Origin: Escherichia phage EC120
Length of the DNA: 44,544 nucleotides
Strand: one strand, 5' to 3'
Sequence record: ON185580.1
Of the stretch, positions 5,782 through 44,485 are shown piece after piece. Each line of letters begins with the position of its first letter. The first letter of the stretch is position 1. The notes under the pieces are model-generated. The model saw only the letters and a list, made by a program, of their open reading frames with translations. It had not been told where the DNA came from and did no database searches. A program made the position numbers and the translations under genes.

Positions 5782-5804
5782 ATTTACCGGACACTATAGG
5801 ATAG
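5782..5804 (+). promoter_or_regulatory. Phage-RNAP promoter (ATTTACCGGACACTATAGGATAG)
   Basis: 18-bp SP6-type core; expected +1 G at 5799. Confidence 0.7.
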
Positions 5805-33800: not shown

Positions 33801-34156
33801 ATTTGGAAGAGAAGTTATCGCCTAAAGGGTTGGCCTTTGGTGCAATGGGTATGATGAGTACAACTGCTGTATTTAGTCTAGGTGGAGATTTCTTAGGTGG
33901 CCTAGGTGTTCTACCTTCTGAGTTAGTACAATCCCGTTATGAGGCTGGCTTTCAGACTAAGGGTTTGATAGACCAAATACCACTAGTAGGTGTTGGTCAA
34001 GATGCATATCGTTTAGCAGATTCTATAACTAAATACGCAGAGGGTGATACAGAAGGTGTAGATGTGGCACGTAGGGCTTTACGCTTAGTGCCTCTAGCTA
34101 ATGTAATAGGAATCCAGAACGCATTGCGTTATGGCTTAGATGAACTGGAGGATTAA
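30848..34156 (+). CDS. Large internal virion (ejection) protein (gp16-like)
   Basis: 1102 aa; GGAGGA RBS; last and largest of the internal virion protein genes. Confidence 0.75.
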   Translation: MEQDIKTNWAGYVQSTPEPFSIEAAPVSAPTIRQRNELQEQVLEAKADADILGAVGAAFQNEWLAFGGKRWYDRATADFTPQPDFEIQPEQREALRFKYGTDMMQTITEGVRSEDELNFRIQNADEDLERNKRIAQAGWVGSVATIGAAVLDPVGWVASIPTGGAAKVGLVGRAVRSAIAAGVSNAAIESILVQGDMTRDLDDIMVALGSGMAMGGVIGAVARGRATKLSEQGDDRAASIVRSADAGDRYVRAVADDSIGAMRVKGEEVLTEGAFDISSKGEGLLKTLQREGNAIDMTPRRWAGTLSALGTVVHSSQDASVRGLGARLFESPQGLGMQKASASLMQNTNLNRLKSADMNRFNDGFDLWLKENNINPVAGHTNSHYVQQYNEKVWEAVRIGMDESTPKSIRMAAEGQQAMYREALALRQRSGESGFEKVKADDKYMPDIFDSMKARRQFSMHDKEDIIELFSRAYQNGSRKVPKEVADDIARAQVNRVADATLTGQLSFEKAMSGQTKAEYEALMRKAGFSDEEIEKMVEALDNKETRDNISNRAKMSLGLDVTQEYNGIRMRDFMNTNVEELTDNYMKEAAGGAALARQGFSTYQAALNAIDLVERNARNAAKDTKAHAQFEAESAKIRQSEPDYKKAQEKIEELKKRLKLKEKDEAAGLAIDEEIRQMREGLRLIMGKSIDSNPQDLSTKMLRRGRDITGVLRLGQMGFAQLGELANFMGEFGIAATTMALGKQFRFTSKALRNGDGFFRDKNLAEVERMVGYIGEDNWLTTKGARPDEFGDVTTVRGMMAHFDQSMNSIRRAQTNLSLFRMAQGSLERMTNRQIALSFIDHLEGKKIIPQKKLEELGLTQEFMTNLQKHYDANSKGSGLLGFDTMPYAMGETLANAIRRKSGLIIQRNFIGDEGIWMNKALGKTFAQLKSFSLVSGEKQFGRGIRHDKIGLAKKTAYGFALGSIVYAAKAYVNSIGREDQDEYLEEKLSPKGLAFGAMGMMSTTAVFSLGGDFLGGLGVLPSELVQSRYEAGFQTKGLIDQIPLVGVGQDAYRLADSITKYAEGDTEGVDVARRALRLVPLANVIGIQNALRYGLDELED

Positions 34157-35118
34157 TGAGTTATACTTTCACAGAACATATAGCCAACGGTACGCAAGTA
34201 ACCTATCCCTTTAGCTTTGCTGGTAGGGATAAAGGTTATCTTCGTGCCTCAGATGTGATAGTGGAGTCTCTTCAAGGTAACACTTGGATTGAGGTTACAT
34301 CTGGCTGGCAACTAACTGGCACGCACCAGATTACTTTTGATGTAGCACCAGTTGCAGGTTTGAAGTTCCGTATTAGAAGGGAAGTACAAAAGGAGTATCC
34401 ATACGCTGAGTTTGACCGTGGTGTTACCTTGGATATGAAGTCTTTAAATGGTTCTTTCATTCATATACTGGAGATTACACAGGAGTTACTTGACGGGTTT
34501 TATCCAGAAGGATACTTCATTAAACAGAATGTAAGCTGGGGCGGCAATAAGATTACTGATTTGGCTGATGGCACAAATCCGGGAGATGCAGTAAATAAAG
34601 GGCAGCTTGATGCCATCGACAAGAAGCATACAGATTGGAACGCCAAACAGGACATTGAGATTGCTGGCCTTAAGGCTGGTATGACTTCTGGTATTGCGCA
34701 CAGAACTGTTCCTTGGTACACGATAGCCCAAGGTGGTGAGATTTCCGTAAAACCACCTTATGAATTTCAAGATGCACTAGTTTTCCTTAATGGGGTGTTG
34801 CAGCACCAAATTGTAGGCGCATACTCTATAAGCAACAACACTATCACTTTCGCAGAGCCGCTTGTGGCTGGTACAGAGGTGTATGTGCTGATTGGTAGTC
34901 GTGTGGCTACATCTGAACCTAATATTCAGTTAGAGTTGAACTTTGACTTAGTAGAAGGCCAACAAGTAGTACAGATTGGCTCTGCATTTAAGTACATTGA
35001 GGTCTACCTTGATGGATTATTACAACCTAAACTTGCTTATCAGGTAGACGGTGACATTGTTACTTTCTCAGAGGGAGTGCCAGAATGCCGGATGACTGCT
35101 AAGATTATCACAGCATAA
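34156..35118 (+). CDS. Tail-fibre/tailspike adaptor protein (T7 gp17 N-terminal domain-like)
   Basis: N-terminus TYPFSFAGRDKGYLRASDVIVESL...FRIRREV resembles the tail-attachment domain of T7 gp17; no long fibre shaft. Confidence 0.65.
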   Translation: MSYTFTEHIANGTQVTYPFSFAGRDKGYLRASDVIVESLQGNTWIEVTSGWQLTGTHQITFDVAPVAGLKFRIRREVQKEYPYAEFDRGVTLDMKSLNGSFIHILEITQELLDGFYPEGYFIKQNVSWGGNKITDLADGTNPGDAVNKGQLDAIDKKHTDWNAKQDIEIAGLKAGMTSGIAHRTVPWYTIAQGGEISVKPPYEFQDALVFLNGVLQHQIVGAYSISNNTITFAEPLVAGTEVYVLIGSRVATSEPNIQLELNFDLVEGQQVVQIGSAFKYIEVYLDGLLQPKLAYQVDGDIVTFSEGVPECRMTAKIITA

Positions 35119-39931: not shown

Positions 39932-40004
39932 GGTCTGCTTCAGTGAACCTGACGCTACAAAATTAGGTTTGTATATTCTTTCGCTAGAACGCGGATATAA
40001 TTAA
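39795..40004 (+). CDS. Candidate o-spanin (outer-membrane lipoprotein, 69 aa from GTG)
   Basis: GAAGGAGG RBS 6 nt before GTG 39795; signal MKRIMLATILLIGSLTISG followed by Cys (lipobox-like ISGC); embedded in the +1 frame of the previous ORF. Confidence 0.5.
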   Translation: MKRIMLATILLIGSLTISGCQQVLPEKAMVKPLRPTLTEVYEVDDKVCFSEPDATKLGLYILSLERGYN

Positions 40005-40033
40005 TACATAGCTTTATGTATCAGTGTCTTACG

Positions 40034-40056
40034 ATTTACTGGACACTATAGAAGAG
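40034..40056 (+). promoter_or_regulatory. Phage-RNAP promoter upstream of tailspike genes
   Basis: ATTTACTGGACACTATAGAAGAG; expected +1 G at 40051. Confidence 0.75.
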
Positions 40057-40135
40057 ATAAGATAGCGCCGTTCTTTTGAGCGGCCTATTACTAGCCAATC
40101 TTCATAGGGAGGGTTGGAAAGTAATAGGAGATAGC

Positions 40136-42034
40136 ATGGCTAAATTAACCAAACCTAATACTGAAGGAATCTTGCATAAAGGACAATCTTTGTATGAGTA
40201 CCTTGATGCGAGAGTTTTAACATCAAAGCCGTTTGGTGCTGCAGGTGACGCCACTACTGATGATACGGAGGTTATAGCTGCTTCATTAAACTCTCAGAAA
40301 GCTGTCACAGTCTCAGATGGTGTATTCTCTAGCTCTGGTATTAATAGTAATTACTGTAACTTAGACGGTAGGGGTAGTGGCGTGCTAAGTCACCGTTCCA
40401 GTACAGGTAACTACTTAGTATTTAACAATCTACGTGCAGGTCGCTTAAGTAATATTACGGTAGAAAGTAATAAGGCGACTGATACAACTCAGGGACAGCA
40501 GGTATCTCTTGCTGGTGGAAGTGATGTTACTGTAAGTGACGTTAACTTCTCAAACGTTAAAGGTACTGGTTTCAGTTTAATCGCATACCCTAATGATGCG
40601 CCACCTGATGGACTTATGATTAAAGGTATTCGAGGTAGCTATTCCGGCTATGCTACTAATAAGGCAGCCGGATGCGTACTTGCTGACTCCTCAGTTAACT
40701 CCCTCATAGATAACGTCATTGCTAAGAACTACCCTCAGTTCGGAGCAGTAGAGTTGAAAGGTACAGCAAGTTACAACATAGTCAGTAATGTTATAGGGGC
40801 AGATTGCCAGCATGTAACTTACAACGGCACTGAAGGGCCAATAGCCCCTTCTAATAACCTTATCAAGGGGGTGATGGCTAATAATCCTAAGTATGCAGCG
40901 GTTGTTGCAGGCAAAGGTAGTACGAACTTAATATCAGATGTGCTCGTAGATTACTCAACCTCTGATGCTAGGCAGGCTCATGGTGTTACAGTAGAGGGTT
41001 CTGATAACGTCATAAATAATGTGCTTATGTCAGGATGTGATGGTACTAACTCTTTAGGACAAGGGCAGACTGCTACAATTGCACGCTTTATAGGTACAGC
41101 TAATAACAACTATGCGTCTGTATTTCCTAGCTACAGTGCTACAGGTGTTATTACTTTCGAATCCGGCTCTACCCGTAACTTCGTAGAGGTAAAGCACCCT
41201 GGCAGGAGAAACGACCTTCTCAGTTCTGCTAGTACTATTGACGGTGCAGCTACTATTGACGGCACTAATAATAGTAACGTAGTGCACGCACCTGCCTTAG
41301 GGCAGTACATAGGTAGTATGTCAGGTAGGTTCGAATGGCGGATTAAGTCCATGTCACTCCCTTCAGGCGTTCTTACTTCTGCTGATAAGTACAGAATGCT
41401 TGGGGATGGTGCTGTATCATTAGCTTTAGGTGGGGGTACTTCTTCTCAAGTTCGCCTATTTACTTCTGATGGTACTTCTCGGACAGTGTCCCTCACCAAC
41501 GGTAACGTGCGTCTTTCTACCAGTAGCACAGGATATTTGCAGTTAGGTGCTGATGCAATGACCCCAGACAGTACTGGTACATACGCATTAGGTTCCGCCA
41601 GCCGAGCATGGTCTGGCGGTTTTACTCAAGCAGCGTTCACTGTTACCTCAGATGCTCGGTGTAAAACAGAACCTCTTACTATTTCAGATGCCTTACTGGA
41701 TGCTTGGTCTGAAGTTGACTTTGTGCAGTTTCAGTATTTGGATCGTGTTGAGGAGAAGGGTGCAGACTCAGCTAGATGGCACTTTGGCGTCATCGCTCAG
41801 CGAGCTAAGGAGGCTTTCGAACGTCACGGTATAGATGCACATCGCTATGGCTTCTTGTGCTTCGACAGTTGGGAGGATGTATACGAGGAAGATGCCGATG
41901 GCTCTCGTAAACTGATTACACCAGCAGGTTCCCGCTACGGTATTCGTTACGAGGAAGTACTGATATTAGAGGCTGCGTTGATGCGGCGGACTATTAAGCG
42001 TATGCAGGAAGCACTAGCTTCCTTGCCTAAGTAA
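40136..42034 (+). CDS. Tailspike 1: beta-helix polysaccharide depolymerase with C-terminal self-cleaving chaperone domain
   Basis: 632 aa from ATG 40136 (AGGAGA RBS). Beta-helix-like Gly/Ser/Asn/Thr-rich repeats; C-terminal ~128 aa begins SDARCK (Ser codon 41648-41650), matching the peptidase S74 intramolecular chaperone signature. Confidence 0.8.
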   Translation: MAKLTKPNTEGILHKGQSLYEYLDARVLTSKPFGAAGDATTDDTEVIAASLNSQKAVTVSDGVFSSSGINSNYCNLDGRGSGVLSHRSSTGNYLVFNNLRAGRLSNITVESNKATDTTQGQQVSLAGGSDVTVSDVNFSNVKGTGFSLIAYPNDAPPDGLMIKGIRGSYSGYATNKAAGCVLADSSVNSLIDNVIAKNYPQFGAVELKGTASYNIVSNVIGADCQHVTYNGTEGPIAPSNNLIKGVMANNPKYAAVVAGKGSTNLISDVLVDYSTSDARQAHGVTVEGSDNVINNVLMSGCDGTNSLGQGQTATIARFIGTANNNYASVFPSYSATGVITFESGSTRNFVEVKHPGRRNDLLSSASTIDGAATIDGTNNSNVVHAPALGQYIGSMSGRFEWRIKSMSLPSGVLTSADKYRMLGDGAVSLALGGGTSSQVRLFTSDGTSRTVSLTNGNVRLSTSSTGYLQLGADAMTPDSTGTYALGSASRAWSGGFTQAAFTVTSDARCKTEPLTISDALLDAWSEVDFVQFQYLDRVEEKGADSARWHFGVIAQRAKEAFERHGIDAHRYGFLCFDSWEDVYEEDADGSRKLITPAGSRYGIRYEEVLILEAALMRRTIKRMQEALASLPK

Positions 42035-42039
42035 GCAAC

Positions 42040-42064
42040 AGGCAGTGCGTAAGCACTGCTTTTC
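42040..42064 (+). terminator. Hairpin plus T-tract between the two tailspike genes
   Basis: Stem GCAGTGC/GCACTGC with GTAA loop, then TTTTC; probable partial terminator. Confidence 0.45.
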
Positions 42065-42119
42065 ACGCAACTTTTCTTAAAGGTTATCATGGTGGTAGCC
42101 TTTCAGAAAAGGAGGTTAC

Positions 42120-43832
42120 ATGCTTCAAAGATTAAGTGCTTACTTGGTGAAGTACAAGAGTAAACTAACAGGTACTATTGAGCGCCTGCTATCTGATAAA
42201 CTATCGGATACAATAGATGTTGCGGATTTTGGAGTTAATCCCTCTTCTAATGACAACAGGCAAGCCCTTCAAGCTGCATTCAATGCGGTCAGATTGCTAG
42301 GTGGTGGTACTGTATCAGTCACTAAAGCTGGCGAATATAAACTCAGTGGTACTGTTGAGATATTTGCTAATACACACTTCAAGGTTGCTAAAGGTGTAAC
42401 ATTTGTACGTGACTACGAAACAGGAGATACGCTATTCAGATTATCACAAGGGCAAGCTAGTAATGTAACAGTCAGTGGAGGTGTCTATGAAGGCAATGGT
42501 CACATTAAAGGAGATACACCTTTTGTAGTATTTGCATCTACTAGTAATAATGATTTGAAGTTTGAAGGCATAACAGTTAACAATGTAGTGGACTACCACG
42601 CCATAGATTTAGCAGATTGGAACAACGTAGTTATTCGTGATTGTAAATTCCTAGGGTTTAAGAATACAGGCAGTCGTAACTTCTCAGAGGCTATACAGTT
42701 AGACCCAGGACTTATTACAGTAGGTCGCTATGTGCAGTCTAGTGGTTTACTGGTAGAGAATTGCTATGCTGGCCCAAACCTTGATTCTGGATTTGGCGGG
42801 TATGGTGCTCTAGTAGGAAATCATGCATCAGCTTATGGTGTTCAAGATAACAACATTAGAATCCTAAATTGCACTACAGATGGTGCGCTCTTTGCAGGTG
42901 TACGTGTATTTAACTGGAAAAACTGGACAGTACGTGGTTGCACCTTTAGAAACTCTAATGCAAGAGGTGTTCATGTTACACCTGTCTCCTCTCAAACTAA
43001 ACCGCAAGGAACCAGACAAGGTAGTGTTGTAGATTGTACTTTTGATGGTGTAAGAACACCAGTGCTAATTGCTGCACCATCTTGGCCTTTTACCGATATT
43101 AGTGACATTTGGCATGACCATATTGAAATTTCTAATAATACTATGATCCTCACAGAGGATGTATCCTATGGTGTAGATGCAAGGTGGTGTAAGAATTTAA
43201 TTGTAAAAGGTAATACAGGCTCTGGTGGCTTAGGTTTAATCGGTTTACGCTTTGGGACAAAATACCACATCGAAGGTAATACTTGGGAAAACGGAAGAGG
43301 TAGTGGGATTTGGTTAGGTGAGTCTGATGCTACTACATTCATTGGTACGGGTTTATCAGGAGAAGGTATACTTAGTCGTAATATCTTCTCTAAATTAGGG
43401 CAATATGGTATTCATGTAAACTGCAAGGTTGGCGGTCTAGTGATTAAGGCTAATAATATGAAGGAAGTATCTACAGCTGAAGCAGGTAGGCACTTCATTA
43501 GCATAGACACAGGGGCTAACAACATCCTAGTAGAAGGTAATATTGGAGTAGATGGAGAAAGCCCTAACAAGCCAAGCCTTGGTATTCGTGTTACTTCTTC
43601 TTGTTCCAATATTAAACTCATTGGCAATGATTGCTATGGTACACAGGCGCCTCAGAATAACCAAGGAGTCGGTTCTAGTACGGTGATTGTTTATGGACTA
43701 AATGGCAATCCTACAACTTTAGGCGTAGGTGCACCTGTAGGCTCTTTAGCAACTGATATCAATGGGTCTGGTGGTAGTACATTGTACGTTAAAGAATCTG
43801 GTACATCTGCTCAAGGTTGGGTTGCAAAGTAG
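42120..43832 (+). CDS. Tailspike 2: right-handed beta-helix (pectate-lyase-like) protein
   Basis: 570 aa; AAAGGAGG RBS; N-terminal DVADFGVNPSSNDNRQALQAAFNAV...GGGTVSV typical of pectate-lyase-fold tailspikes; no C-terminal chaperone domain. Confidence 0.8.
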   Translation: MLQRLSAYLVKYKSKLTGTIERLLSDKLSDTIDVADFGVNPSSNDNRQALQAAFNAVRLLGGGTVSVTKAGEYKLSGTVEIFANTHFKVAKGVTFVRDYETGDTLFRLSQGQASNVTVSGGVYEGNGHIKGDTPFVVFASTSNNDLKFEGITVNNVVDYHAIDLADWNNVVIRDCKFLGFKNTGSRNFSEAIQLDPGLITVGRYVQSSGLLVENCYAGPNLDSGFGGYGALVGNHASAYGVQDNNIRILNCTTDGALFAGVRVFNWKNWTVRGCTFRNSNARGVHVTPVSSQTKPQGTRQGSVVDCTFDGVRTPVLIAAPSWPFTDISDIWHDHIEISNNTMILTEDVSYGVDARWCKNLIVKGNTGSGGLGLIGLRFGTKYHIEGNTWENGRGSGIWLGESDATTFIGTGLSGEGILSRNIFSKLGQYGIHVNCKVGGLVIKANNMKEVSTAEAGRHFISIDTGANNILVEGNIGVDGESPNKPSLGIRVTSSCSNIKLIGNDCYGTQAPQNNQGVGSSTVIVYGLNGNPTTLGVGAPVGSLATDINGSGGSTLYVKESGTSAQGWVAK

Positions 43833-44002: not shown

Positions 44003-44485
44003 TCTTAGTGTACACAAGGGCAGACCTAGGTTTGCTCTTAGTGTATTTACAATGGAGGTCTTATGTATATACCTATGGAAGCACTAGTAGGTTGCCTGTG
44101 TTTGTTGGTAGGCTTCATTATAGGCTTAATAGCAAACCCTTAGTGTAATCCAAGGAGGTAACATGCAAGAAGAGAATTGGGATGTGTAATATTGGGTTTG
44201 GAGGAGGCTGAACCTTAGTCCTGTACAAGGATTAACCAAAGTCAAAATTTTGATATAGGCGTGTGTGAGGTGTCTCGCCCTCGCCCTCGCCGGATTTCCC
44301 CCATATGGGGCCGCGCTGCGGTTGGCTTGGGAATTGGGCTGGGCTGGTGGGCTGGGCTGGTCCGTCGTGGCCTAGGGCTTGCCGAGGTCTGCTCTTAGTG
44401 GCTGCACAAGGAGAACGCCTAGGAAGCGCTAGGGCACGCCTTAGTATTGGACAAGGTGATTGCCTTAGTTCAACCGCTTAGGGCT
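44003..44485. repeat. Right-end array of CTTAGT(G) repeats (at least 7 copies) flanking a GC-rich tandem-repeat core
   Basis: CTTAGTG-like motif at about 44004, 44037, 44140, 44214, 44394, 44440, 44464; same motif as the left-end array. Confidence 0.5.

Follow-up and report, generated by a model that had tools for sequence, protein, structure and literature searches.

A K5 lyase tailspike with a C-terminal S74-type chaperone domain in Escherichia phage EC120

The analysed stretch of DNA, hereafter the window, is the whole 44,544-nucleotide record ON185580.1 of Escherichia phage EC120. It is a complete Vectrevirus (SP6/K1-5-like) genome, and its right-hand 24.5 kb are 94-98% identical to phages EEc4, vKMB47, 101101UKE1 and Sem1-4. 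A long direct terminal repeat was looked for in the window and none was found. The tailspike gene kflA (gp46) occupies positions 40136..42034 of the plus strand and consists of 632 codons and a stop. The tailspike cassette is preceded by a 23-nt phage-RNA-polymerase promoter of the SP6/K1-5 type, ATTTACTGGACACTATAGAAGAG (40034..40056, plus strand). Eight copies of this sequence are present in the window, all on the plus strand, against zero expected by chance. The copy at 40034-40056 falls inside the promoter annotated at 302-351 of the GenBank entry Y10025.2.

The kflA gene is followed by an 85-nt spacer (42035..42119, plus strand) with two predicted hairpins (MFE -35.3 kcal/mol, z = -6.7), which hardly varies between the window, K1-5 and K5A. 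Next comes the gene of a second tailspike (42120..43832, plus strand; 570 aa), which occupies the slot of the K1-5 endosialidase and has a Pfam match to Beta_helix. Only its N-terminal approximately 45 residues resemble K1-5 gp47, and no S74 domain was found in it by the Pfam search. This protein is present in 21 phage records at 95-99% identity, and CFT073 is among the hosts recorded for phages that encode it. Its pairing with the K5 lyase has already been published for vKMB47 and 101101UKE1 (PMC11162368). The adaptor protein expected to carry both tailspikes is encoded at 34156..35118 of the plus strand. It is a homologue of gp37, identical to YP_654138 of K1-5 at 318 of 320 positions, and the adaptor role of gp37 has been described (PMC6872550). 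YP_654138 itself is annotated as a tail fiber protein.

The 632-aa tailspike was compared with KflA of coliphage K5A (Y10025.2, CAA71133; PDB 2X3H) and gp46 of phage K1-5 (AAG59821). The protein alignments cover all 632 residues and have no gaps, with 98.26% identity to KflA (11 differing positions) and 98.89% to gp46 (7 differing positions). The substitutions are conservative, examples being N8K, L99P, A101T, G310R, N378S, L431V, V552I, E580D, D588N and S629A, and none of them touches Ser505 or Lys510. At the DNA level, the gene is 98.0-98.4% identical to the lyase genes of K5A and K1-5. In a megablast search against phage genomes, the region 40000-42100 matched 101 phage records; in 50 of them the coverage of the query is 80% or more and the identity 90-99%. 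Phage K1-5 is among the matches, with "K5 lyase" as the name of the feature, and so is Y10025.2, the original entry for the lyase of the K5 phage. The protein also has an end-to-end match to PHROG 14895 (tail spike), and in a comparison with PDB sequences the K5 lyase structure 2X3H is an almost perfect match to its residues 1-505.

As judged from these alignments, the gene product is the K5 capsule (heparosan) lyase tailspike KflA/gp46 itself and not merely a K5-lyase-like protein. It is effectively an allele of a characterised protein. The original prediction, a K-antigen-specific receptor-binding protein, thus gains a named antigen: since KflA and gp46, at 98-99% identity, come with a crystal structure and published processing, the specificity is known to be for the K5 heparosan capsule of E. 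coli, and the checks suggested originally are in essence already on record. Activity of the K5 depolymerase has been reported (PMC5696595), and the window protein should likewise cleave the K5 (heparosan) polysaccharide by beta-elimination.

The mature lyase would comprise residues 1-504 (40136..41647, plus strand; 52.0 kDa), that is, a beta-helix catalytic body followed by a triple-stranded beta-helix stalk. In KflA, a trimeric beta-helix is followed by a triple-stranded beta-helix (PMC8822698). A search of the 632-aa protein found no Pfam match to Beta_helix at E <= 0.01, and the assignment of the body therefore rests on the near-identity to 2X3H. With this basis, the expectation of a beta-helix capsule depolymerase holds.

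The start of the gene deserves a separate comment. The mechanically derived open reading frame runs from a TTG codon (40076-42034) and would encode 652 aa, whereas the ATG at 40136 yields 632 aa. A ribosome-binding site AGGAG (40126..40130, plus strand) lies 5 nt upstream of the ATG and coincides with the one annotated at 428-432 of Y10025.2, where the same start codon is annotated as well. One could assume that translation begins at TTG 40076 and that the protein has a 20-residue N-terminal extension: the frame is open up to 40076, and this position is downstream of the promoter at 40034-40056. However, no Shine-Dalgarno sequence was found before this TTG. The annotated KflA and gp46 both begin at the ATG, K1-5 gp46 being annotated at the same length of 632 aa, and the native part of the crystallised KflA sequence (2X3H) opens with MAKLTKP. 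The same heptapeptide forms residues 1-7 of the window protein (40136..40156, plus strand). It has been reported to dock the lyase on the adaptor gp37 in K1-5 (PMC6872550, citing Leiman 2007), a role that requires it to be N-terminal, and it is the proposed docking peptide here as well. The TTG start was rejected on the position of the ribosome-binding site, the annotation of Y10025.2 and K1-5 and the docking role of MAKLTKP, and we consider it extremely improbable. All these signals point to the ATG at 40136 as the real start, and the 20 codons from 40076 would, as originally suggested, be untranslated.

The last 128 of the 632 residues form the C-terminal intramolecular chaperone domain (residues 505-632, 14.7 kDa; 41648..42031, plus strand). 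It lies at the extreme C-terminus, directly after the stalk region that is near-identical to that of KflA 2X3H, and opens with SDARCKTEP (residues 505-513). Residues 505-565 are matched by the Pfam family Peptidase_S74 (PF13884, "Chaperone of endosialidase") at 55.8 bits and E = 5.5e-15; the gathering score is 22, and the match covers positions 1-57 of the 58 in the profile. The match begins exactly at Ser505. A search of PDB sequences with the full-length protein identified five solved chaperone-bearing chains: the chaperone of the GA-1 neck appendage 3GUD (E = 3.4e-23), endosialidase F in the S911A mutant form 3GW6 (E = 5.7e-20; 1.6e-21 with the C-terminal query), the tail spike protein 6EU4 (E = 5.2e-20), the phage tail fiber 7Y5S (E = 7e-20) and the L-shaped fibre of T5, 4UW8 (E = 2.2e-9). 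These alignments extend to residues 603-629. The alignment with 3GW6 resumes at query residues 593-630, which indicates that the C-terminal helical part is conserved. A chance occurrence of the SDARCK motif was rejected on the PF13884 and PDB E-values. Thus both the S74-type chaperone and its beginning at Ser505, postulated originally from the motif, were recovered by the profile and the structures, and the proposed sequence check against KflA and the endosialidase chaperone gave near-identity to 2X3H and the above match to 3GW6.

In the founding study of this domain, by Schwarzer in 2007, the K5 lyase used for Ser-to-Ala mutagenesis was reportedly ElmA. K5 lyases are one of the four founding phage protein families with this domain, the cited example being ElmA and not KflA (PMC8326128). 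K1-5 and K5 have been listed as 'presumably' using the cleavage mechanism, with reference to Schwarzer 2007 and the KflA structure paper (PMC4690869), and the S74 domain has previously been noted in the Sem phages (PMC13005862).

The residues required for cleavage can be read from the alignments. Ser505 (41648..41650, plus strand), the first residue of the S74 match, is the predicted autoproteolytic nucleophile and cleavage site, and Lys510 (41663..41665, plus strand) is the predicted general base of a Ser-Lys dyad. In the alignment with 3GW6, "ftvtSdarcKtep" stands opposite "pivtAngerKtep", so that Ser505 corresponds to position 911 (Ala911 in this mutant) and Lys510 to Lys916 of the endosialidase endoNF. 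Ser505 also aligns with the first residue of 3GUD, and Lys510 with the lysine of the S-x4-K motif in 3GUD and 7Y5S. A Ser-Lys dyad has been described for endoNF, T5 (Ser1264/Lys1269) and MyRF (Ser587/Lys592) (PMC4690869, PMC8326128).

A third element is less regular. In endoNF and T5, a stalk arginine of the neighbouring subunit (Arg897 and Arg1250, respectively) couples cleavage to correct folding (PMC4690869). The candidate counterpart in the window protein is Arg490 (41603..41605, plus strand), the only arginine in the nearby stalk (...GSASRAWSGGF...). However, it precedes Ser505 by 15 residues, whereas in 3GW6, 7Y5S and T5 the arginine stands 14 residues before the serine, and in ungapped alignments Arg490 pairs with Asn896 of 3GW6. 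The local context also differs, being GSAS-R-AWSGGF here and G(G/S)xSNR-Fxx in the others. The simplest explanation of the offset is a local shift by one residue, and Arg490 may then be the folding-sensor arginine. It is also conceivable that K5-lyase-type chaperones have a slightly different geometry of cleavage and folding, of which the arginine offset would be a trace, and perhaps the other scissile bond, Ser505|Asp506, in this subfamily; this we consider rather doubtful. Apart from the position of the arginine, every character that defines the S74 chaperone family or the KflA cassette and can be examined in a sequence is present.

By calculation, the precursor has a mass of 66.8 kDa, of which residues 1-504 make up 52.0 kDa and residues 505-632 make up 14.7 kDa. 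This agrees with the published values of 67 and 52 kDa: recombinant K5 depolymerase has been observed at 52 kDa "after proteolysis" (Lin et al., PMC5696595), and a review table lists ORF46 of K1-5 as "67/mature form 52/trimer" (PMC5380687). The expected size of about 504 aa for the mature spike is thereby supported. A different reading is that the C-terminal domain is retained and serves at the distal end of the virion spike in binding or stabilisation. In its favour, the PDB entry 9VVR lists a full-length sequence of 843 aa that includes a homologous C-terminal domain; this is a deposited sequence only, which does not prove that the particle contains the domain. However, retention disagrees with both published observations of the 52-kDa form, the catalytic serine and lysine are intact in the window protein, and competition assays with the T5 protein showed function only for the processed form (PMC4690869). 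Retention was rejected on the published 67/52 kDa processing (PMC5380687, PMC5696595), and there is very little chance that it is correct. In the papers surveyed, we found no mutagenesis of KflA itself.

The original prediction placed the auto-cleavage at Ser505. Removal of the chaperone by such a cut agrees with the conserved dyad and the published 52-kDa processing; on the exact bond, Thr504|Ser505 or Ser505|Asp506, the literature on the family is divided. With the same mechanism but a cut behind the serine (Ser505|Asp506), residues 1-505 would make up the mature spike, and the released chaperone would have 127 residues. This would fit the deposited KflA chain 2X3H, which ends at Ser505 and includes it. 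The abstract of Schwarzer 2007 is said to place the cut that frees the domain 'after' the conserved serine. The appendage of phi29 has also been modelled with the serine as its final residue (PMC4690869). On the other hand, T5 pb1 is cut at Thr1263-Ser1264, the serine has no density in the mature fibre, and K1F has been reported to behave likewise (PMC4690869). Mass spectrometry of MyRF placed the cut at Pro586-Ser587 (PMC8326128), and the chaperone chain 3GUD opens with the serine. The cuts in T5, K1F and MyRF and the start of 3GUD therefore favour Thr504|Ser505 with a 504-aa product, which we consider the probable site; a cut after the serine is possible but clearly less probable. The products of the two cuts differ by only 0.1 kDa and thus cannot be separated on gels.

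Taken together, these data make it very probable that the gene encodes the K5 lyase KflA/gp46 with an S74 chaperone at residues 505-632, self-cut at Ser505 and docking on gp37, and no observation of this analysis contradicts the model. Translation from the ATG at 40136 would yield the 66.8-kDa precursor, which would trimerise through its C-terminal domain, the latter serving as a template for the folding of the stalk and the beta-helix body. In the correctly folded trimer, the Ser505-Lys510 dyad would cut the chain at Ser505, most likely at Thr504|Ser505, and an arginine of the neighbouring subunit, with Arg490 as the candidate, probably assists. The 14.7-kDa chaperone would then leave, and a kinetically stable 52-kDa mature spike would remain. 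Its trimer would dock on the adaptor gp37 via the N-terminal MAKLTKP and give the phage access to the cell surface by degrading the K5 capsule through beta-elimination. The identity of the protein, its domain match, the conserved dyad, the start site, the encoded adaptor and the calculated masses come from the present analysis. For the 52-kDa processing, the crystal structure, the docking on the adaptor and the chemistry of the lyase we rely on published work, and we infer which bond exactly is cut and what role Arg490 plays.

Two practical consequences follow. A part of the host range can be predicted, since one spike of the two is directed at the K5 (heparosan) capsule of E. coli. Constructs for recombinant expression must contain the C-terminal domain, which removes itself to leave the 52-kDa enzyme. 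As a discovery the observation carries little weight: GenBank contains dozens of near-identical genes, as seen from the 101 matching records, and publications from 2000-2010 onwards already cover the protein and its structure as well as the capsule specificity and the processing at the C-terminus.

The closest known systems are K5A KflA and K1-5 gp46, which share with the window protein the length, the promoter, the ribosome-binding site, the MAKLTKP N-terminus, Ser505 and Lys510, and the downstream 85-nt spacer. The partner spike differs, being an endosialidase in K1-5 and the 570-aa beta-helix protein in the same slot of the window.

Endosialidase F of phage K1F (3GW6; S74 in MEROPS and Pfam) has a homologous chaperone with an aligned Ser-x4-Lys, which follows a triple-beta-helix stalk as it does here. 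However, its body is a sialidase beta-propeller unrelated to the lyase beta-helix of KflA. The KflA chaperone is also shorter, without the insert that separates the two aligned blocks in 3GW6, and its arginine stands at -15 and not at -14.

The chaperone of the neck appendage of Bacillus phage GA-1 (3GUD) is the best-scoring isolated chaperone domain (E = 3.4e-23), with an alignment that spans Ser505 to residue 623. The phage in this case infects Gram-positive bacteria, the domain is part of an appendage, and the upstream body is unrelated to KflA. The L-shaped tail fibre protein pb1 of T5 (4UW8) contains the same domain and dyad (Ser1264/Lys1269) and is more distant (E = 2.2e-9). Once folded, pb1 releases the domain, and the S1264A substitution prevents this cleavage (PMC4690869), but the mature protein is a non-enzymatic fibre tip, unlike the KflA lyase.

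The tail spike 9VVR, for which the literature search found no paper, is closer: its residues 242-842 correspond to residues 31-631 of the window protein at approximately 95% identity. This stretch takes in the chaperone and the SDAR-x-K motif, with Asp at the position of Cys509. Its N-terminal region, however, is different, as approximately 240 residues stand in place of the short adaptor-docking peptide. Thus 9VVR contains the same lyase-plus-chaperone module on a different anchor.

The SP6/K1-5-type phage promoter ATTTACTGGACACTATAGAAGAG occurs in eight copies in the window with zero to three mismatches, where none would be expected by chance. All copies are on the plus strand, at positions 5782, 8085, 12478, 12941, 14172, 22636, 38372, and 40034. 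The last of these is a perfect copy situated shortly upstream of the tailspike cassette. Both genome ends contain clusters of the hexamer CTTAGT, again all on the plus strand, with 12 copies in 89-394 and seven in 44004-44469. The total is 50 copies, whereas chance would give 31 +/- 6. The sequence at approximately 44270-44400 is rich in G+C. No long direct terminal repeat was found within the window, and thus any such repeat, if the phage has one, was assembled as a single copy only.

The two spike genes are separated by a spacer of 85 nt (42035-42119, plus strand) that is nearly invariant among the window and the coliphages K1-5 and K5A; the sequences start to diverge just within the second spike gene. 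The spacer folds into two strong hairpins (minimum free energy -35.3 kcal/mol, z = -6.7). The first hairpin (approximately 42040-42061) is followed by UUUU, and the second one has a 3' arm that shares bases with AAGGAGG, the ribosome-binding site for the second spike. The spacer could serve for transcriptional attenuation, for translational control, or as a recombination boundary for the swapping of spikes.

The second tailspike (570 aa; 42120-43832, plus strand) occupies the slot held by the endosialidase gp47 in K1-5. The similarity to gp47 is limited to the first 45 residues or so, which begin with MLQRLSAYLVK, compared with the adaptor-docking peptide MIQRLGSSLVK of gp47. Its Pfam matches, Beta_helix and NosD, identify a right-handed beta-helix, and it lacks an S74 chaperone domain. 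The sole sequence match in PDB is weak (3ZPP, E = 1.6e-8). The protein is present in 21 phage records, with E. coli CFT073 and Klebsiella aerogenes among the listed hosts. The literature search found no publication establishing its substrate.

In the first tailspike, the K5 lyase, the candidate folding-sensor arginine of the stalk, Arg490 (41603-41605, plus strand), is 15 residues upstream of the nucleophilic serine of the autocleavage site, whereas the corresponding distance is 14 residues in endosialidase F, the phage tail fiber 7Y5S, and the T5 L-shaped fibre protein pb1. Cys509 (41660-41662, plus strand), set between the catalytic serine and lysine in SDARCK, is retained in K5A and K1-5. 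However, the aligned residue is Asp in 9VVR, His in the GA-1 neck appendage (3GUD), Arg in endosialidase F (3GW6), and Leu in 7Y5S. Since this position varies among homologues, Cys509 probably has no special function.

PDB entry 9VVR is a solved "tail spike protein" of 843 aa, for which the literature search found no describing publication. Kayfunavirus records are also among the megablast matches to the tailspike region. Judging from these matches and from the 9VVR architecture, the lyase-plus-chaperone module appears to be mobile between spikes that dock on an adaptor and spikes that are anchored directly: the lyase body and chaperone domain of 9VVR are approximately 95% identical to residues 31-631 (40226-42028) of the first tailspike, whereas its N-terminal part is a region of about 240 residues in place of the short MAKLTKP peptide.
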